The notes under the pieces are model-generated. The model did not search any database and was not told the DNA's origin. It saw only the letters and a program-made list of their open reading frames with translations. A DNA stretch of 64,000 nt. Source: an uncultured Chloroflexia bacterium. Its GTDB lineage: Bacteria > Chloroflexota > Limnocylindria > Limnocylindrales > CSP1-4. This document shows, one piece after another, positions 18,693-27,340 of this stretch. Numbering within the stretch: the stretch's first letter is position 1; each line of letters opens with the position of its first letter. The stretch spans positions 1,024,001 through 1,088,000 of the forward strand of contig CAVXPZ010000001.1 of NCBI GenBank assembly GCA_963763775.1, written 5' to 3'. The position numbers were made by a program, and so were the translations under genes.

Positions 18693-19100
18693 ATGGCCAG
18701 CGGCAGTGGCACACGCGAGGATCCCTGGGACCTGACGACCGCGCCCGGGACGTCGGGCTACCAGATGTGGCGCGACGAGGCCGCCGACCCGCCGGCGCTC
18801 GTCTGTCAGGTCGGCGGCACGCAGCTCCGCTACCAGCTCCGCTGCATCGACGACCTCCACGCGATGCTCAAGGCGCACGGCGACTGGATGCCGCTGGGCG
18901 GCGCCGACGAGCAGAAGCCGGCGCCCGACGGCAGCGTCGAGGCGTGGGGGCGCGCCGAGGGGAACCCGGTCGGCGGGTGGTACGGGCTGAAGAAGGGGCT
19001 CCGCGGCCGGTTCGGCGTCTACCTGCCGCCGCTGCTCGAGGCGCTCGGTCTCGCCGAACTCACGCACGACGCCAAGAACAACCGGATGCGCGCCATCTGA
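18693..19100 (+). CDS. Conserved hypothetical protein (DUF6855-like)
   Basis: GTREDPWDLTTAPG...NPVGGWYGLKKGLRGRFG...NNRMRAI; AGGAGG RBS. Confidence 0.75.
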   Translation: MASGSGTREDPWDLTTAPGTSGYQMWRDEAADPPALVCQVGGTQLRYQLRCIDDLHAMLKAHGDWMPLGGADEQKPAPDGSVEAWGRAEGNPVGGWYGLKKGLRGRFGVYLPPLLEALGLAELTHDAKNNRMRAI

Positions 19101-19483
19101 TGTCCCGGCCGAACGCCGCCCGATCCCGAGGCCGGGCTCCCGCGCCGGCCCGATCGCCTGGTGGATCGCCGACCCGGGCTGGCGGCGACCCGTTCGATGC
19201 GCTCGGCGATCCGAACCGTCGAGCGATCGTGGAGCTGCTCCGCCCCGGCGGGCGGTCCGTCCAGGACCTCGCCGACGCGCTGCCGATCAGTCGGCCCGCC
19301 GTCTCGCGCCATCTGCGGCTCCTGAAGGACGCGGGGCTCGTCGTCGAGGAGCCCCGCGGGACCCGCCGCATCTACCGACTGCACGACGCCGGCGTGGAGG
19401 CGGTCCGCGAGTACCTCGAGCGGGTCTGGGGCGACGCCGCCGGACGGTTCCGGCTGGTCGCCGAGAACCGGCGCCGACCGTGA
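19100..19483 (+). CDS. ArsR/SmtB family transcriptional regulator
   Basis: FDALGDPNRRAI, ISRPAVSRHLRLLKDAGLV, GTRRIYRL. Confidence 0.92.
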   Translation: MSRPNAARSRGRAPAPARSPGGSPTRAGGDPFDALGDPNRRAIVELLRPGGRSVQDLADALPISRPAVSRHLRLLKDAGLVVEEPRGTRRIYRLHDAGVEAVREYLERVWGDAAGRFRLVAENRRRP

Positions 19484-19971
19484 TCGACCCGATCCGCCTC
19501 TCCTTCGAGGTCCGCTGCCCGCCGGAGCAGGCCTTCGAGACGTGGACGGCGCTGATCGACACGTGGTGGCCGCACGACCACACGGTCACGGCTGCGGACG
19601 AGCTCGCCGTCGTCCTCGAGCCGCGGCCCGGCGGTCGCATCTACGAGCGGACCGGCGCGGGCGACGAGTATGAGTGGGGCGAGGTGACCGTCTGGGAGCC
19701 GCCGACGCGGTTCGGCTACCTCTGGCACCTGCGACGGGACCGCGCGGATGCGACCGATGTCGAGGTGCGGTTCGTCGACGCGGGCGACGGGTCGACGACG
19801 GTCGAGATCGTCCACAGCGGCTGGGAGCGCCTGGGCGCCGAGGGCGAGCCGTGGCGCGACCGCAACCACGGCGGATGGGCCACCCTCCTCCCGCACTTCG
19901 TCGAGGCCGCGGAGCGCGCCAGCCAGGGCGACGCGGACTCAGCCCAGGGCGTCGAGCACCGCGTCGGATAA
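19480..19971 (+). CDS. SRPBCC/AHSA1 domain protein
   Basis: AFETWT..WWP, GEVTVWEPP, TTVEIVHSGWE, GGW. Confidence 0.88.
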   Translation: MIDPIRLSFEVRCPPEQAFETWTALIDTWWPHDHTVTAADELAVVLEPRPGGRIYERTGAGDEYEWGEVTVWEPPTRFGYLWHLRRDRADATDVEVRFVDAGDGSTTVEIVHSGWERLGAEGEPWRDRNHGGWATLLPHFVEAAERASQGDADSAQGVEHRVG

Positions 19972-20772
19972 CGCCGGCCAGGCGTCCAGCGCCCATGGCC
20001 CGAACTCGCGGTCCGTCAGGACGACGAGCGCGATATCCGCCTCCGGGTCGGCCCACACGAACGTACCGGCCCCGCCGAAGTGGCCGTACGTGGCCGGGCT
20101 TGCCCGCTCGCCCATCCAGTGCGGCGACTTGCCGCCATGGAGCTCGGGTCCCAGCGCCCAGTCGCACGGGGCGAAGTTGCCGACACCCGGCACGACCCCC
20201 GCGAGTCCCGGGAAGGCGACCGTCGTGGCCGCCACGACGGTCGACGGCGCCAGCAAGGTGGGACGCAGGAGCTCGCCCGCAAAGGCGGCCATGTCGTCCA
20301 CGGACCCATCGAGGCCCTGCGACGGCCGGTCGACCAGGCGGGTCCGGCCCATCCCGAGCGGCTCGAGGACGTCGGACCGGACGATCGCCTCGAACGATCC
20401 GGGCGCCTCGCCACGCGACTCCGCCACGAGCCGACCGAGGGCGTCGTACCCCGGGTTCGAGTAGATCCGGCGACGGCCCGGTGCGGAGATCGGCGTCTCG
20501 CCCTCGAACGGCAGACCCGAGGCGTGGGCCAGCAGGTGGCGCACGGTCGCCCCGGGCGGCCCGGCCGGCGCGTCGAGATCGAGCTCGCCCCGGTCGGCGG
20601 CCATCAGGACGCTCCACGCGGTCACGAGCTTGGTCAATGAAGCGAGCCGGAAGACCTGCCCAGGATCGCCGTGACGCGCCACGACACCATCCGGGCCGAC
20701 CACGGCGGCGGCCGCGTGGGTCGCACCCCAGTCGTCGACGCGGGCCAGGACGCTTGCGAGCCGGTCGGTCAT
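19939..20772 (-). CDS. Serine hydrolase (beta-lactamase family)
   Basis: ASLTK (SxxK), LLAHASG, YSN, GHFG. Confidence 0.92.
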   Translation of the reverse strand: MTDRLASVLARVDDWGATHAAAAVVGPDGVVARHGDPGQVFRLASLTKLVTAWSVLMAADRGELDLDAPAGPPGATVRHLLAHASGLPFEGETPISAPGRRRIYSNPGYDALGRLVAESRGEAPGSFEAIVRSDVLEPLGMGRTRLVDRPSQGLDGSVDDMAAFAGELLRPTLLAPSTVVAATTVAFPGLAGVVPGVGNFAPCDWALGPELHGGKSPHWMGERASPATYGHFGGAGTFVWADPEADIALVVLTDREFGPWALDAWPALSDAVLDALG

Positions 20773-20912
20773 GACCGGGATGCTACCGGCAGGACGGCGT
20801 CGACGGCCTCGGCGGCCCGGGCCGGCCCGCGGCGCGACGAACGCGAGCGGGACCTCCGGCGAGGGCCACCCGCCCGACCGTCGGGTGGCCGGACTTGCCC
20901 AGGGGCGTCACC

Positions 20913-22528
20913 ATGTCGACGTGTCGTCCGGCTGCCTCCCGAAGATCGCGCCGCCCTCCCTCATCCTCGGGCTGCTCGCCGCCGCGCTGATCTGGCCGGC
21001 GAGCGTGTCGGCGAACGAGTTCCCGTCGGGCCATACCGCGTACCACACGTACACCGAGGTGGGCACCGAGGTCGCGGCCGTCGCGGCCGCCCACCCAGAT
21101 ATCGTCAAGCGGTTCTCGATCGGCCAGAGCTACAAGGGCCGAGAGCTCTGGGCCGCGAAGATCTCCGACAACGTGGCGACGGACGAGAACGAGCCCGAGG
21201 TGCTGTTCGACGGCGGCACCCATTCCGATGAGCACATGGGCGTCGAGATGTCGCTGCGGATCCTGCACTGGCTCGCCGACGGCTACGGCACCGACGCGCG
21301 CATCACGAACATCGTGAACAGCCGCGAGATCTGGATCGTGTTCATGGTGAACCCCGACGGCGCCGAGTACGACATCTCGGGCGGCAAGTTCCACTACTGG
21401 CGCAAGAACCGCCAGCCGACCCCCGGCACGACCTCCATCGGGACCGACCTCAACCGGAACTTCGGCTATCGATGGGGCGGCGGCGGCCGGACCAGCTCGA
21501 ACCCGCAGGCGATCACGTACCGCGGCCCGAAGGCGTTCTCGTCGCCCGAGACCCGCGCCATGCGCGACTTCCTCGCCAGCCGGGTCGTCGGCGGTCGCCA
21601 GCAGATCCGTGCCGCCCTCTCGTTCCACGAGTCCGGCCGACTGATCCTGTGGCCGTACGGCTACACGCTGACGAACATCCCCTCCGACATGACCGTCGAC
21701 GATCACGCGGCGCTGGCCAAGATCGCGAAGCACATGGCCGCGTCCAACGGCTACCGGCCCGAACAGGCGAGCGACCTGTATGTCAGCTCCGGGACCACGC
21801 GCGACTTCGAGTACGGCACCTACCGGATCTTCTCGTACACCGTCGAGCTGTCCGTCACGGATTACCCGGGCGACGCGAAGATCGCCACCGAGACCGGCCG
21901 GAACAAGGAGGCGGTGCTCTGGTTCATGGAGCAGGCGTGGTGCCCGCTCGGCATCCTCGGGGCGACGGTGCGCACAGCCCGGTGCGGCGCGTTCGACGAC
22001 GACCTCGAAGTCGGGCGCGGGTGGGCCGTGAACCCGGACGGCACCGACACGGCGCCCGCATCCGGACGGTTCGTCCGTGCGAACCCCGCGACGACGACCT
22101 CGTCCGGGACGAAGCAGCGCGGCACGACGACGTCCGGCTCGAAGGCGTTCGTCACCGGCGCCCCGGCCGGGTCCACGCCGAAGTCGCACGACCTCGACGG
22201 GCGGACGACGGTGCGCTCGCCGGTCATCGCCCTCCCGGCGACGACGGGCCAGCGGCTGACCTTCCGGTACGTGTTCGCGCACGACGCGGCATCGACCTCG
22301 GCCGACGGGCTCAAGGCGATCGTCGAGCGTGGTGACGGGTCGACCACCACGGTGTGGAGCGTCGCCGGGAGCGCCCACGACCTCGATGGCGCCTGGCGGA
22401 CCGCGTCCGTCCCGATGGACGCCTTCGCCGGCGAGTCGGTGCGCATCCGGTTCGTGGCGACCGACGGCGGACCCTCGAACCTCGTCGAGGTCGAGATCGA
22501 CGATGTGCGAGTGACGCGCGGCTCGTAG
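20913..22528 (+). CDS. Secreted M14 zinc carboxypeptidase with C-terminal beta domain (start uncertain; probable 5' frameshift)
   Basis: Signal-like segment, HSDE (HxxE), NPDG, WRKNR, DLNRNF, SFHE, YTVEL. Confidence 0.88.
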
Positions 22529-22584
22529 CGGCGGGTCCTGCCGGTCGTCACCGACCCGTCACGAACCACGGCTAGACTCCGGGC

Positions 22585-23262
22585 ATGAGGTTCTTCCAGT
22601 CCACCCCCAAGTCCATCCCCTCCCCCGCCGAGACGCTGCCCGGCCGAACCGAGCCGATCATGACGCCAGGCATCCACACGATCCTCGGCACGCCCCTCGC
22701 CGGTCCGTGGCCCGAGGGCACCAAGACCGCGATCTTCGGCCTCGGCTGCTTCTGGGGTGACGAGAAGGACTTCTGGCAGCTGCCCGGTGTCGTGACGACG
22801 GCCGTCGGCTATGCGGGCGGGACGACGCCCAATCCGACCTACAACGAGACCTGCACCGGCCGGACCGGCCATGCGGAGGTCGTCCTCGTCGCGTACGACC
22901 CCTCGCGGATCACGTATGAGCAGCTCCTGAAGACCTTCTGGGAGCACCACGATCCGACGCAGGGAATGCGCCAGGGCAACGACGTCGGGACGCAGTACAG
23001 GTCGATCATCCTCACCGCCGACGACGAGCAGCGGGCCGCCGCCGAGGCGTCCAAGGCGATGTTCCAGGACCAGCTCACGAAGGCGGGCTACGGCCAGATC
23101 AAGACTGAGATCGTCGACGCCGCCTCGAACCCGTTCTACTACGCCGAGGACTACCACCAGCAGTATCTCGACAAGAATCCCCGGGGTTACTGCCCCAACC
23201 ACGCAACCGGCGTAAAGCTACCCGACGACTTCGCGGTCACACCGCTCCAGTACGTGGACTAG
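22585..23262 (+). CDS. msrA: Peptide-methionine (S)-S-oxide reductase
   Basis: [39 protein letters not shown]. Confidence 0.97.
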
Positions 23263-23304
23263 CAACCTCCTTCCGCCTGTGACAATGGATGAGGGGGGCT
23301 GCGA

Positions 23305-23670
23305 GTGGAGGCGAAGCGGTCGATACGGTTTCCCCGCAAGCTCTGGCTCGCGGTCGGCCTGGTTGTCGTCGGTGTCCTCCTTCTGGCGCAGAACTCGACG
23401 GTTCTTGTTCCGAACGTGGACTCCTACGTCGTGGTCAACGCGCGCACCATCGCACTGAAGGTCGCCGTCGCCCCGTGTAGCTGGACGCGGGTCACCAACG
23501 TCGCGGAATCCCCCACCGTCGTCCAGGTCAAAGTCGAGACGTGGCCCTGCCCGATCCCGCTCCCCGGCACGGGCGAGCTGGCCGCTCAAGACCTGACGGT
23601 CCTGCTCGCCGCCGACCTCGCCGGGCGGGACGTCCAAGACGCAAACGGGCAAGCGGTTCCTTCGCGGTAG
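23305..23670 (+). CDS. Hypothetical exported/membrane-anchored protein (cassette 1 cargo)
   Basis: N-terminal TM segment, two Cys; codon usage less GC-biased than the host. Confidence 0.65.
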   Translation: MEAKRSIRFPRKLWLAVGLVVVGVLLLAQNSTVLVPNVDSYVVVNARTIALKVAVAPCSWTRVTNVAESPTVVQVKVETWPCPIPLPGTGELAAQDLTVLLAADLAGRDVQDANGQAVPSR

Positions 23671-23682
23671 GCGGAAATGGCA

Positions 23683-23789
23683 CCGGCAGCAGTCTCGCTG
23701 AGGATCCCCGTGGTTACTGCCCCAACCACGCGACCGGCGTAAAGCTCCCCGATGACTTCGTGGTGACGCCGCTCCAGTACGTGGACTAG
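23683..23789 (+). repeat. Copy 2 of msrA 3' end
   Basis: 23703-23789 matches msrA 23176-23262 at 79/87 nt by manual alignment; reads [28 protein letters not shown]. Confidence 0.95.
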
Positions 23790-23816
23790 TCGACCCCCAT
23801 CACTACACTCGGGGAC

Positions 23817-24182
23817 ATGAAAGCGACACCGTTCGTCCGCCTCGCCGAGATCGACATCGACCCGGCACAGCGCGAGGCGTTCAACTCGGCGGTCAAGGAA
23901 GAGATGGACGAGTCGGTTCGAGTCGAGCCGGGCGTGTTGGCCCTCTATGCCGTAGCCGAGAAGGACGACCCGTCCCGCCTGCGATTCTTCGAGATCTACG
24001 CCGACGAAGCGGCGTACGACAGGCACCTGGAGTCGCCCCACTTTCGGAAGTACCGAGCAACCACCGAGCCGATGATCCGGTCGCGTACGTTGACCGAGAC
24101 CATCCCGATCCAACTCAGCTCGAAGCCGAATTGGCAGCAGGATCAGGGAGATGACAAAGCCCGCCGGCAGCAGTCTCGCTGA
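23817..24182 (+). CDS. Putative quinol monooxygenase (ABM family; cassette 2 cargo)
   Basis: EPGVLALY, FFEIYADEAAYDRHLESPHF; TACACT 7 nt before ATG; stop lies inside the repeat junction. Confidence 0.9.
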   Translation: MKATPFVRLAEIDIDPAQREAFNSAVKEEMDESVRVEPGVLALYAVAEKDDPSRLRFFEIYADEAAYDRHLESPHFRKYRATTEPMIRSRTLTETIPIQLSSKPNWQQDQGDDKARRQQSR

Positions 24183-24269
24183 GAATCCGAACGGCTACGG
24201 CCCCAACCACGCGACGGGCGTTCGGCTGCCGGACGGCTTCGGGTCACGCCGCTGCAGTACGTCGACCAA
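24164..24269 (+). repeat. Copy 3 of msrA 3' end (decayed)
   Basis: About 77% identical to the msrA tail by manual alignment; NPNGYGPNHATGVRLPDGF-(1-nt deletion)-VTPLQYVD; stop changed to CAA. Confidence 0.9.
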
Positions 24270-24444
24270 CGCCCGATCCTGTCGAGCCCGATCGTCAGCG
24301 GTCAACGCCAGGCCGTGAACTTCGCGGCTTGATCCGCCAGGTTCACTCCGTCCGCCGGACGCGCCTCTGCGAAGATGCAGGGAGCGTGCCCGGGTGCGTC
24401 GACGAACGTCGGCGTCCTTCGCCCGTCGACGCCCTGGAGGGCCG

Positions 24445-25299
24445 ATGACTGGATCACTGCTGGTTCATCCCGCGGCGGACGAGACCGCGTTCGCGAACAG
24501 CGGTGGCATCCGCATCGCATGGCGCCGATATGGAGATGGTCCCGAGACGATCCTCCTCCTGCCGACGTGGAACTTCGTCGACTCCCGCGTCCAGCGCCAC
24601 CAGGTGGACGCGCTCCGTGATCAATTCCGAGTGCTGACGTACGACGCACGCGGGTCCGGCCAAAGCGACCATCCCTCGGCCGGATACCGCTTCGCAGACC
24701 ACCTCGAGGACGCGCTCGCGGTGCTCGACGCGACCCAGACGGCGGCCGCATCCGTCGTGGCGGCGTCAAGAGGCACACACGTCGCGGTCCTGCTCGCGAC
24801 CGGACATCTCGATCGCGTGCATCGCATGGTCCTGGTCGCACCCGCGATCGACGTTCCGGCCGACGACCAGCTTGTGGCGCCGACGGAGACGGAGGACGAA
24901 CCCGACTGGCGGACCGACTACGCAGCGTTCGTTCACTGGTTCATCTCCACGGCGTTCCCGGAACCTGGCCAGGAGACGACGATCGCGGAGATCGTGAAGA
25001 TCGCCCTGGGCGCCGACCATGCGATGCTGCTCCAGCAAGGCACGGAACTCGACTGGGACGAGGCCCCGCGTCGTCTCAAGGACGTACGCTGCCCGACGCT
25101 CGTGATCCATGGGACCGCAGATCGGACGCTAGACGTGGACTCGGTGAAGGCCGTCGCGTCGTCGATCCCCGGCGCGGACCTCGTGCTACTCGACGGCCTG
25201 GGCCATCGTCCCGATATCAGTCGGCCGGCCATCGTCAACCCGATCCTCGCCGACTTCCTGGGTACCGCGCCATCGGCCGTGTCTGCTCCGGGTAGCTGA
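24445..25299 (+). CDS. Alpha/beta hydrolase
   Basis: YDARGSG, AASRG nucleophile elbow, TLVIHGTAD, GH; GGAGG RBS. Confidence 0.9.
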   Translation: MTGSLLVHPAADETAFANSGGIRIAWRRYGDGPETILLLPTWNFVDSRVQRHQVDALRDQFRVLTYDARGSGQSDHPSAGYRFADHLEDALAVLDATQTAAASVVAASRGTHVAVLLATGHLDRVHRMVLVAPAIDVPADDQLVAPTETEDEPDWRTDYAAFVHWFISTAFPEPGQETTIAEIVKIALGADHAMLLQQGTELDWDEAPRRLKDVRCPTLVIHGTADRTLDVDSVKAVASSIPGADLVLLDGLGHRPDISRPAIVNPILADFLGTAPSAVSAPGS

Positions 25300-25358
25300 G
25301 GACCGGATCCGTGCGTGAGCGATCTGCTGGCGGACGCCGCGGCGTACGTCGGGTAGGC

Positions 25359-25760
25359 CTATGCGGGTGGTCGCCCGACCTGGCGCGCGTAGTCAGCTGC
25401 GTCGAACCAGCCTCGGGACGACCTGACCAGGTACTCCGCGTCGACGTCCCACTCTTCCCAGCCGGGGATCCGTAGCGCGTTGCCGGTCGTCACGGCGGTC
25501 CCGGTGAAGGTCCACAGGTAGGCGACGTGGTCGCCGGCGATGCGCAGGCCGTCGCAGACGAGGGCGAGATCGGGCACGTCGGCGAAGAAGCCCGCAGCCA
25601 TCTCTGCGACCCCGGTCCGACCCTCCCAGAGGCGACCGCGGTTGATGACGATCCCGCCGTCCGGGGCATAGAACTGCGCGACAGCCTCGGCGGATCCTGA
25701 GTTCCACGCCGCGGTGTACGCGTCCGCGACCTGGCGCATCCGGTCGTGATCGATGGTCAT
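25359..25760 (-). CDS. SnoaL/NTF2-like protein
   Basis: YTAAWNSG...YAPDG...WTFTGT...GWEEW. Confidence 0.85.
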   Translation of the reverse strand: MTIDHDRMRQVADAYTAAWNSGSAEAVAQFYAPDGGIVINRGRLWEGRTGVAEMAAGFFADVPDLALVCDGLRIAGDHVAYLWTFTGTAVTTGNALRIPGWEEWDVDAEYLVRSSRGWFDAADYARQVGRPPA

Positions 25761-25780
25761 CGTCGTGTCCCCTCTGGTTC

Positions 25781-26341
25781 TTACTCGGTGGCGTAGCCCA
25801 GGTACGTCACGCCCGATGAGAACGTGCGGGTGTCGGTGAGGCGTAGGCGGATCGGCGCGTCGAGGGGCGGGAGGTACGGCGTCCCGGACCCGAGGATGAC
25901 CGGGTGCACGACCAGCTCGTACCGGTCGACCAGGCCCCGCCTGATGAACGCGGACGCCAGGGTCGGACCGCCGACCTCGAAATCACCGTCGAGCTCGGTG
26001 CGCAGCCGTGCGAGCTCCTCACCGACGTCGCCACGGACCAGCCGGCTGTTCCAGTCGACCGACGTCAGCGTGGATGAGAAGACGAACTTGGGGATGCCCA
26101 GCCAGAGGCGCCCGAACTCGCGCATGGGCTCGGTCGCGGCGGGGTCGTCCTGGGCCGTCGGCCAGTACGCCGACATCAGCTCGTACAACCTGCGGCCATA
26201 GAGCGAAGCGGCGAGGCCGCGCGCCCGATCGGTGAACCAGGTGAGGAGCTCGTCGTCGTTGACCCCCCAGTCGACCGAGTGGTCCGTGGTCTCGATGAAC
26301 CCGTCAAGCGAAACGTTGAGGGTGTAGATCAGCCTGCCCAT
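25781..26341 (-). CDS. Dihydrofolate reductase-like (RibD C-terminal) protein
   Basis: VSLDGF, GRRLYE, KFVFSSTL, GGPTLA, LVDRY..HPVILGSG. Confidence 0.92.
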   Translation of the reverse strand: MGRLIYTLNVSLDGFIETTDHSVDWGVNDDELLTWFTDRARGLAASLYGRRLYELMSAYWPTAQDDPAATEPMREFGRLWLGIPKFVFSSTLTSVDWNSRLVRGDVGEELARLRTELDGDFEVGGPTLASAFIRRGLVDRYELVVHPVILGSGTPYLPPLDAPIRLRLTDTRTFSSGVTYLGYATE

Positions 26342-26421
26342 CCGCGCCTCCGTGTGGTCACGTCGTCTGCCGCGATGGACGACAGGAGGTCGAGCTTAGA
26401 GGCTGCCGTCCGGGGACCGGA

Positions 26422-27340
26422 TCAGTCGCCAAGCGTGAGAGCGAACTTGCCGGCGACCTCGCGGTCCTGCAGCCGCTGCATGGCCCCCTCGATCTCCTCC
26501 CACGGCGATGCCCCGGCCAGTTGCGGATCCAGCTTGCCCTCGCCCACGAGGGTCGCGAGGTATCCGAGGTCGCGACCGAACGGCTCGTCCCCGAAGAACA
26601 GTTCGAATCCCTGGAGGCGAACGAGACCGTCGTTGAAGACGTCCCTGACGTCGAAGGTGGTCGGCTCGCTGGAGCTGTTGCCGAACATGACGAGCGTCCC
26701 ATCAGGGTCGACGATCGTGACGAGCCGGCCGAGCGTCGCGCCTCCCACCGACTCAAGGATCAGGTCGAACCGGCCGCGGAGCTGCCCGATGTCTGCCACG
26801 ACCTCGTCGGCCCCGAGGTCCCGAAGGCCCGCCGACCGCGCCGAACCCTCGCTGACCAGTGCCGTGACCTCCGCGCCACCCAGGTGGGCCAGCTGGATCG
26901 CGAACCGGCCCACCCCGCCGGAGGCGCCCGTGATGAGGACGCGTCGCCCGAGGATGGCGGGTCCCGAGCCTGAGCATCCGTAACGCGGCCAGACCGGCGG
27001 TCGGGATCGCGGCCCCCTGGGCGAAGGACACGGCGTCGGGCAGCTCGGCGATCGAGCCCGGCGCCACCGCGACGCGCTCCGCCCACGTGCCACCTTGCCG
27101 GATCCCGACGACTCTCGTACCGGCTCGCAGACCCCCGTCGATGTCGACCTGGAGCGTGCCCGCAAAGTCCCATCCCGGACGCCATCCATCCGGCTTTCGC
27201 CGGAGCAACCCCAGCTCGCCGCGATTGATCGAGAACGCACGAACGGCGACGGGCACCTCGCCGGGCGCCACGACCGGCTCCGCAACGTCGCGCAAGGCGA
27301 TCCTGCCGGGAGCCGAGCTGTCAGCCACGAATGCGCGCAT
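26422..27340 (-). CDS. Zinc-binding dehydrogenase / quinone oxidoreductase (MDR); frameshift near 26965
   Basis: SINRGE, GWDFAG, AAIPTAG, then VLITGASGGVG, DLILESVGG, GK in a second frame. Confidence 0.85.

Follow-up and report, generated by a model that had tools for sequence, protein, structure and literature searches.

Displaced copies of the msrA 3′ end alternate with small variable genes in a lineage of Chloroflexota: a probable additive genomic island

Downstream of msrA, the gene for peptide methionine sulfoxide reductase, an uncultured member of the Limnocylindrales (Chloroflexota; assembly GCA_963763775.1, here G000) carries two further copies of the end of that gene, with exactly one small open reading frame (ORF) between successive copies. 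The stretch analysed, called the window, comprises 64,000 nucleotides (nt), positions 1,024,001 to 1,088,000 of contig CAVXPZ010000001.1 (C1); the assembly has 4 contigs and 3.3 Mb (71% G+C, 87% complete), and msrA lies at 1.047 Mb of C1. We read the locus as an additive genomic island at the msrA 3′ end, built by site-specific insertions that each brought a replacement tail and reshaped afterwards as tails decayed, units were lost and, probably, tails exchanged by homologous recombination, and we give this reading a probability of about 0.55. Recurrent insertion with a replacement tail, the old tail being displaced, had been proposed in a first-pass annotation of this DNA, and it is supported by arrays that vary among relatives, a conserved arm next to the displaced tails, a ratio of non-synonymous to synonymous change (pN/pS) of 0.24 in these tails, and the uncoupling of tail and body in MsrA. 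The same annotation spoke of a candidate new gene-capture system, which is an overstatement, since additive islands, tycheposon islands and the accretion of cis-mobilizable elements (CIMEs) are close known relatives.

Repeated msrA ends in the window

The last ~87-105 nt of msrA are repeated twice downstream. The repeat search gave a three-copy direct-repeat family (23156-23233, 23683-23760 and 24164-24241; start-to-start 527 and 481 nt) in which identity to copy 2 is 78% for copy 1 and 81% for copy 3, and also a 97-nt pair (23166-23262 and 23693-23789) with 89% identity, whose end is the msrA stop. Both the spacing and the single small gene between copies had been reported at first pass, and the repeat search and the ORFs confirm them. 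On searching the whole 3.3-Mb assembly with blastn no further copies were found (next matches at most 39 nt, E at least 0.025); because only these three places match, the repeat is neither a chance nor a dispersed one. The features, with amino acids as aa and the evidence in brackets, are as follows.

22585..23262, plus strand: msrA, peptide methionine sulfoxide reductase, intact, 225 aa (ORF; PF01625, E 4.5e-62)
23155..23175, plus strand: msrA-side arm (codons ...HQQYLDK), immediately left of the exchange point (alignments)
23176..23262, plus strand: resident tail, copy 1, final 28 codons and stop (repeat search, codon comparison)
23305..23670, plus strand: cargo 1, 121 aa, hydrophobic N-terminus, no Pfam family (ORF, Pfam)
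23683..23702, plus strand: element-side arm 1 (repeat family, alignments)
23703..23789, plus strand: displaced tail, copy 2, frame and stop intact (codon comparison)
23817..24182, plus strand: cargo 2, ABM-family monooxygenase-like protein, 121 aa (ORF; PF03992, E 3e-17)
24164..24183, plus strand: element-side arm 2 (repeat family, alignments)
24184..24269, plus strand: displaced tail, copy 3, decayed, with Cys>Gly, a 1-nt deletion and the stop lost (codon comparison)
24394..25299, plus strand: alpha/beta hydrolase gene, the first after the recognisable array (Pfam)

In the alignments the msrA-side arm sits within a block that is nearly invariant genus-wide, and left of 23176 msrA and the displaced copies diverge. 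Element-side arms 1 and 2 are the same 20-nt stretch, similar to, yet distinct from, the msrA arm, and the stop codon of cargo 2 falls within arm 2. Copy 2 differs from copy 1 at 8 of 87 nt, 6 of the changes being synonymous and 2 non-synonymous (N>D, A>V); for this copy, as for the decayed copy 3, the earlier description was accurate. Homologues of cargo 1 (protein cluster 8) occur in the msrA-downstream region of G017 and G115, those of cargo 2 (cluster 1) directly after a tail in G020, G114, G120, G122b, G130 and G148, and a fragment of the same alpha/beta hydrolase gene follows the array in G033.

Arrays in related genomes and metagenomes

A hundred further msrA regions were drawn from the 131 genomes of the genus (101 genus loci with the window), and tails were located in them with an nhmmer profile made from the window copies and iterated twice. 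The census covers the 94 loci that have at least 1.5 kb downstream of msrA; among the seven loci with shorter flanks, which were left out of the count, G092 and G153 also have extra tails. One tail was found in 53 loci, two in 26, three in 11, four in 2, five in 1 and six in 1. Therefore 41 of the 94 loci hold 1-5 extra tails, with variable cargo, which is what the comparison with relatives suggested at first pass was to look for. The tail-to-tail period ranges from 104 to 2623 nt, and in every locus the last tail falls within 4933 nt of the msrA stop, in scans that extended over 12-16 kb. In other genera we counted 6 tails in G155, 7 in G156, 3 in G158 and 2 in G157.

A narrow displaced-tail pattern, which detects only about a quarter of the displaced tails in our own locus set, matches 25 of 401 sampled genomes of the family (10 of 49 genera). 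It also matches 22 JGI metagenome contigs, all 22 of which carry msrA-tail arrays (up to six tail matches per contig). More than 60 independent records, which come from several studies and assemblers, show the same architecture with different cargo, and its recurrence across long-read metagenome-assembled genomes (MAGs), short-read MAGs and JGI contigs of different records makes misassembly unlikely.

One copy is built differently. At ~1.3-1.5 kb downstream of msrA in G012 (L049), a displaced copy extends ~35 codons further into msrA and has msrA-like sequence in place of the arm; this copy stems from another sort of event, namely a partial duplication of greater length. It may be noted that xerD of G000 (C1:649124-650086) and msrA of G011, G012, G020, G028, G029 and others are split by single frameshifts, which in these few-contig MAGs are most likely long-read assembly indel errors rather than pseudogenes.

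A conserved arm with a fixed junction

Right-aligning the displaced tails brings out ~30 conserved nt on their left side. This stretch, the arm, has a constant left edge and joins the tail at a constant point, codons K|N of ...YLDK|NPRGY... The short core of this arm is CTGACCTGTCTGAGAA, and the msrA equivalent is CTCGACAAGAA. Left of the arm lies cargo-specific DNA, the arm often beginning a few bases past the cargo stop codon. Both genus g1 and G155-G159 have the arm in conserved form, and nearly every displaced tail, across at least 10 genera, bears such a conserved non-msrA arm.

The position of the exchange is indicated by G156, whose resident msrA has a lineage-specific variant, KSDGSGY. 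Four displaced tails of this genome have the variant too, directly behind a typical arm; the DNA right of the junction therefore derives from the msrA of the G156 lineage itself and that on the left from incoming DNA, which places the exchange at the arm/tail junction. Synonymous variability in the 12 two-fold codons before the tail is 0.040 as against 0.094 (permutation p 0.038), a weak signal from one test on related genomes; within the tail no synonymous-site constraint of the kind expected of a DNA site was seen (0.097 vs 0.094).

Selection on the tails and replacement of the resident one

Comparing 23 intact, ungapped displaced tails with the resident tail of their own genome, we counted 147 synonymous and 109 non-synonymous differences, a pN/pS of 0.24 that is biased downward by the restriction to intact copies (40 of the 63 displaced tails are broken, partial or gapped). 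Such a value is not what a drifting local duplication would yield, and it indicates that the displaced tails were once working MsrA ends, as the first-pass annotation had supposed.

The resident MsrA tail is replaced often and is uncoupled phylogenetically from the body of the protein. When 73 intact msrA genes are compared, identity in the resident tail (last ~30 codons) follows identity in the body with r 0.27, and a 32-codon control block follows it with r 0.83. In 20 pairs the bodies agree at 90% or more; here the tails reach 81% identity and the control blocks 94%, and for G074 and G133 the figures are 98.5% in the body and 78.6% in the tail. The ratio of close-pair to distant-pair mismatches per column stays at ~0.0-0.5 up to the Pro before the invariant block and is ~1 from NPRGY onward. 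This maps the switch between alignment columns 199 and 216, where the nearly invariant block gives no finer resolution. Swapped tails are found in single-tail genomes too; therefore displaced tails are often lost after the exchange.

Cargo genes and their horizontal movement

For the cargo we counted ORFs of at least 70 aa that pass a G+C3 filter. The 66 units have one ORF in 35 cases, none in 27 and two or three in 4, and of the 44 ORFs 34 are co-oriented with msrA and 10 opposite. Their Pfam families (25 of 34 listed) include ABM, glyoxalase/VOC, zinc-dependent dehydrogenases, adenosine deaminase, SnoaL, RibD_C, YecM, TMEM175, nucleoside deoxyribosyltransferase, DUF2652, alpha/beta hydrolase, HIT, adenylate cyclase and methyltransferases. 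Duplicated cargo is rare in the arrays. The ten ORFs of the metagenome arrays give a similar list, plus one insertion sequence (IS) fragment. The latter, an IS-type integrase-core fragment (rve_3, E 2.7e-13; L169:6612-7031, plus strand), lies within a unit of a metagenome msrA array, and the sister contig L170 is without ~1.2 kb at this position.

By eye, TAnAnT-like hexamers are present ~6-9 nt before cargo start codons in the window (spacer 23790-23816) and in the equivalent spacers of relatives, for instance TACACT before the ABM gene and TATAGT or TAGACT before VOC genes. These hint that the inserted genes may be self-expressed from leaderless transcripts.

In some pairs of genomes, homologous unit DNA exceeds the first 540 nt of msrA in similarity by up to 18 points (94.1 vs 75.7, 96.3 vs 80.6 and 97.0 vs 85.3), and in other pairs it falls short by up to 18 points. 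Across genera, cargo proteins are 84-96% identical and MsrA 56-70% (best matches, hence biased upward); the MsrA of G155 reaches at most 65% identity to any of 73 g1 genomes. Judged from these identities, cargo moves horizontally, including between genera.

Arrays at tRNA genes of the same genome

That other conserved genes might have similar tail arrays had also been raised at first pass, and genome self-comparison together with ARAGORN located such arrays at three tRNA genes of G000. Behind tRNA-Arg(TCG) (C3:759444-759521, minus strand) stand four direct copies of a ~65-85-nt element that consists of a conserved arm and the last ~17 nt of the tRNA, in units of 0.65-3.1 kb (C3:753690-759521; L162:3690-9521). 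The 19 ORFs scanned in this array include a sigma-70 family gene, a beta-propeller fragment and hypotheticals, and no recombinase was found among them. Behind tRNA-Arg(CCG) there are two ~100-nt repeats, at 5 and 10 kb, that end in the last 16 nt of the tRNA (C3:517863-528193), and behind tRNA-Pro(CGG) one repeat, at 3.5 kb, with the last ~12 nt of the tRNA and ~55 nt of flank (C3:38366-42006). The tyrosine recombinase family PF00589 has no match on contig C3 of G000; in G108 a PF00589 gene lies ~0.5 kb from tRNA-Arg(TCG).

Seventeen shared nucleotides are too short for homologous recombination by RecA, and the tRNA arrays therefore favour site-specific integration in this lineage. G000 thus has several hotspots of integration, of which the msrA array is one, and its islands are as a rule poor in integrases. 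ARAGORN also calls a 98-nt tRNA-Pro(CGG) within the window (20374-20471, minus strand). This call is probably false because Rfam finds no tRNA there; in fact no known RNA family was detected in 19000-27000 at E up to 0.1.

How the msrA arrays may be built

Under the island reading, incoming DNA would recombine with msrA at, or just left of, the K|N junction. The insert would supply its own last ~28 codons, so keeping MsrA whole, and would add one or a few small genes, while the previous tail would be shifted downstream to stand behind a ~30-nt arm borne by the element. Repeated insertion would build the array, whose displaced tails would then decay or vanish. The founding step would be a conservative site-specific recombination by a tyrosine-type integrase, acting in trans or from a transient helper element as in CIME-like accretion, and the duplicated tails may later act as homology for RecA-dependent exchange and loss of units. 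The data show the architecture, its recurrence, the replacement of tails, the horizontal movement of cargo and the lack of a linked recombinase; the enzyme class, a circular intermediate and the size at which units arise are matters of inference. A wider proposal is an integron-like capture platform throughout the family in soil and freshwater Chloroflexota, with the msrA coding end as its site, sub-kilobase single-gene units that bring only a ~30-nt arm and a replacement tail, and an unlinked recombinase (of the host, or unrecognised) that would excise and insert them and whose logic would serve the tRNA arrays as well; we consider this wider proposal unlikely.

Observations that weigh against site-specific insertion

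Several results count against the reading preferred here, and we gather them in this section. No recombinase is present among the 44 in-array ORFs in the 25 of 34 Pfam families listed (the remaining 9 are single-member families). PF00589 was surveyed in six frames in the 45 genomes of the genus that are at least 85% complete, and none of the 150 matches listed (29 others lie outside these) is within 33 kb of msrA. The array-bearing G140, G144 and G023 (88-93% complete) have two PF00589 matches each, which are presumably XerC and XerD. The arm-junction pattern, with at most 2 mismatches, occurs in the 131 genomes beside msrA only, among the matches listed; arm patterns gave 0 matches in IMG/VR, and a phage collection gave no match to the tail and 3 weak matches to other parts of the query. 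Neither an excised circle nor an empty site was seen in reads, where no run held more than 0.12 of the sampled words. The proposed polarity, newest tail proximal and oldest distal, stands as a trend only, as the first displaced tail outscores the last in 12 arrays and the reverse holds in 4 (two-sided p 0.077, non-significant).

Also, the limits of the shared DNA do not coincide with those of a unit. Across genera the segment of 93-100% identity is the cargo ORF (in one pair the spacer and arm too), with flanking tails at 70-90%. Between G155 and G102 the 96-100% identical segment is the ORF alone, and between G155 and G080 the similar segment runs from just past the msrA stop to the arm. Identity climbs gradually from the tails into the cargo with no step at the junction. 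Because the tails before shared cargo are less similar than the cargo, a simple unit of tail, cargo and arm is an incomplete model. The same cargo modules, with the same tight boundaries, are moreover present without tails in other genomes. A VOC gene found in 20 genomes stands directly after a tail in 8 and elsewhere after unrelated genes or inverted, and in an alignment of 8 genomes its homology stops a few bases past the stop codon, with or without arm and tail behind. Two explanations suggest themselves, namely reshuffling or conversion of the tails following insertion, or a traffic that may consist largely of homologous exchange of the segment between two tails.

Search for an enzyme, a helper or an excised form

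That the window holds no recombinase had been stated at first pass and is confirmed; none was found near msrA in relatives either, among the matches listed. No integrase was found in 101 genus loci, 5 other-genus loci and 22 metagenome contigs, and no recombinase in the ten metagenome-array ORFs apart from the rve_3 fragment. Genes for integration, excision, replication or transfer, or pieces of them, did not turn up in the ORFs scanned (for the 44 in-array ORFs, in the 25 of 34 families listed). In G000 (87% complete), neither the serine recombinase families (PF00239, PF07508) nor rve (PF00665) gave a match. Upstream of msrA, the neighbours in relatives are an M14 peptidase, a serine hydrolase-like gene and others. 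We considered a hidden integrase on this side and rejected it, as the cluster-3 protein adjoining msrA in 35 loci resembles, by eye, a serine hydrolase.

The PF00589 signal of G000 comes from four places, only at C1:649-695 kb and 1.56 Mb. Two are XerC beside a topA-like sequence and XerD beside recN, and the other two are low-G+C frameshifted fragments near the end of C1. These last (C1:1562270-1562678 and 1568868-1569329) are pieces of tyrosine recombinases, one with a P4-like N-terminus. The same region (C1:1522710-1569329) has tRNA-Gly(CCC) at 1534809 and, upstream of this gene, three copies of it, partial or whole; the region could be an island of foreign origin or a contig end that is contamination.

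The first-pass idea of non-autonomous cassettes moved in trans, as in an integron, is not established, since no circular form, empty-site pair or enzyme was found. Plasmids or phages lost in binning could yet be carriers. The Logan contigs of four runs are short low-depth pieces, and among them we found the single-contig joints 23168>24242 and 23173>24182 (sides of 29 and 22 nt, 88% likeness). As these are equally likely to be msrA ends of relatives as empty sites, they were given no weight.

Alternative explanations

Homologous exchange between tails is the main, serious rival of site-specific insertion, although on balance we doubt that it is the whole account. By this view a few founding duplications would be enough, after which the tails and the nearly invariant block would serve as portable homology, and RecA double crossovers, loop-outs and Campbell-type re-insertions would shuffle, swap and delete genes with no dedicated recombinase. 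The lack of a recombinase near the arrays is then expected, and so are the gradual rise in identity from tails (70-90%) to cargo (93-100%) and the swapped tails of single-tail genomes. Also the breakpoint of the uncoupling falls in or beside a ~44-nt block that is almost identical across species, an obvious hotspot for crossover. What homologous exchange alone leaves unexplained is the conserved, fixed-edge, non-msrA arm in at least 10 genera and the more than 25 cargo families between tail copies. Unequal crossing-over should moreover duplicate cargo, yet such duplicates are rare; the tRNA arrays share with their target only ~17 nt, too little for RecA; and at the G156 junction arm and msrA have ~5 nt in common.

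A second alternative takes each unit as the deletion remnant of a large integrase-bearing prophage, integrative and conjugative element (ICE) or integrative and mobilizable element (IME) at msrA, nothing small having moved. Precedents exist, as decay to integrase-less att-flanked CIMEs followed by accretion is documented in the portions of PMC5704250 drawn on here, and scattered partial tRNAs and degenerate elements in tycheposon islands appear in those of bioRxiv 10.1101/2020.12.28.424599; the integrase beside tRNA-Arg(TCG) in G108 points the same way. Against this, no unit period in any of the 94 loci exceeds 2.6 kb, and the units mostly hold one intact small gene (35 of 66 with one ORF, 27 with none of at least 70 aa, 4 with two or three). 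The ORFs scanned hold no gene or fragment for integrase, excisionase, replication or transfer, and no six-frame PF00589 match lies closer than 33 kb to msrA among the matches listed for the 45 genomes. Descent from large elements is, in our estimate, improbable.

An artefact, be it misassembly or tandem duplication of msrA with subsequent decay, is hardly credible, for although msrA and xerD of several long-read MAGs have frameshifts resembling assembly indels, the same architecture with different cargo recurs in over 60 independent records, the pN/pS of 0.24 is unlike decay after local duplication, and no msrA 5′ copy lies downstream save the longer partial copy of G012.

Relation to known systems

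Among the three kinds closest to the msrA locus are the additive flexible islands of Methylophilaceae, which the consulted text of PMC10872708 describes as anchored at tRNA genes with recurring copies of the last ~20 bp of the gene. Both have hypervariable small accessory genes beside a conserved target, copies of the target 3′ end between gene sets, and content that differs among close relatives. As far as that text goes, msrA is set apart by being protein-coding, with ~87 nt of coding sequence replaced per event so that the MsrA C-terminus is swapped, by its ~30-nt arm, and by the lack of an integrase in more than 130 loci; in those islands msrA itself is named as cargo. Of the features of an additive island, we find the position by a conserved target, scattered partial copies of this target and content variable among relatives, and we do not find an integrase-bearing element at msrA in the genus, other-genus and metagenome loci counted above (101, 5 and 22).

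Tycheposons, in the parts of bioRxiv 10.1101/2020.12.28.424599 used here, have a tyrosine (rarely serine) recombinase, often replication genes, a size of several kb or more, and tRNA targets. The msrA locus resembles the tycheposon islands of Prochlorococcus in the serial insertion at one gene, the pushing of older inserts inward, the scattered partial targets and the preponderance of DNA outside intact elements. It differs from what is described there in that no recombinase, replication genes, multi-kb element or tRNA target was found at msrA.

CIMEs are, by the relevant passages of PMC5704250, decayed ICEs or IMEs with known helpers, which in streptococci accrete in tandem at the 3′ end of a target gene. 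They have in common with the msrA units att-flanked modules without integration or transfer genes, a tandem position at a gene 3′ end, and potential mobilisation by helpers. Unlike in these passages, at msrA no decay remnants or helper were found and the units are single-gene sized. Direct-repeat flanks of the target 3′ end are present at msrA, and integration and transfer genes are absent (in the 25 of 34 families listed). Remnants of ICEs or IMEs were not found in the units, nor was an arm-tail copy away from msrA in the 131 genomes (among the matches listed), IMG/VR or the phage collection. Compared with these three closest kinds, the msrA locus differs in its functionally replaced ~87-nt coding end, single-gene units, short conserved arm, and absence of an integrase in more than 130 loci. 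In the literature searched, titles and abstract openings do not describe msrA as an integration site. No publication combining Limnocylindria and integron was found, other accounts of gene flow in the group not having been searched.

Integrons, as generally understood, share with the msrA arrays small genes of accessory metabolism (glyoxalase, ABM, SnoaL), a repeated site (~130 nt) between genes and one fixed insertion platform. The likeness may extend to mostly single genes in one orientation, since one ORF is present in 35 of the 66 units (none in 27, two or three in 4) and 34 of 44 ORFs are co-oriented with msrA. Unlike in integrons, there is no intI by the platform, the repeated site is the coding end of the platform gene rather than an attC hairpin, and the cargo appears, by eye, to carry its own start signals. 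An attC-like hairpin was tried and rejected, as the DNA folding of the three G000 copies on both strands gave z values from +0.33 to -1.74, with 10-120 of 200 shuffles folding equally well or better. What we take to be the integron R and L box motifs were not seen in the tail copies. With no adjacent integrase and no hairpin site, the msrA locus is not an integron on the features tested.

Elsewhere in G000 the only dif-like motif of the assembly (inner ATAA, 6 nt, TTAT, which is our assumption of the dif pattern) lies at C1:~523,901 and is a candidate site for chromosome dimer resolution. We also rejected an integrative mobile element exploiting Xer (IMEX), whose site would resemble dif (XerC arm, 6-8 bp spacer, XerD arm), because by eye the arm-tail junction is without the inner ATAA/TTAT half-sites, and its two 6-mers shared with the dif-like site are in the wrong order.

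Significance

With the msrA locus, gene gain and loss can be followed throughout a family by a concrete marker that can be counted, and cargo is seen to pass between genera. As a side effect, the C-terminus of a housekeeping enzyme, including a conserved Cys, is repeatedly swapped. If a recombinase is found, a compact att site of arm and junction for small inserts would be defined, and it could be tested whether integron-like capture works without a linked integrase. If homologous exchange alone suffices, the locus would be an example of duplicated gene ends serving as portable homology.

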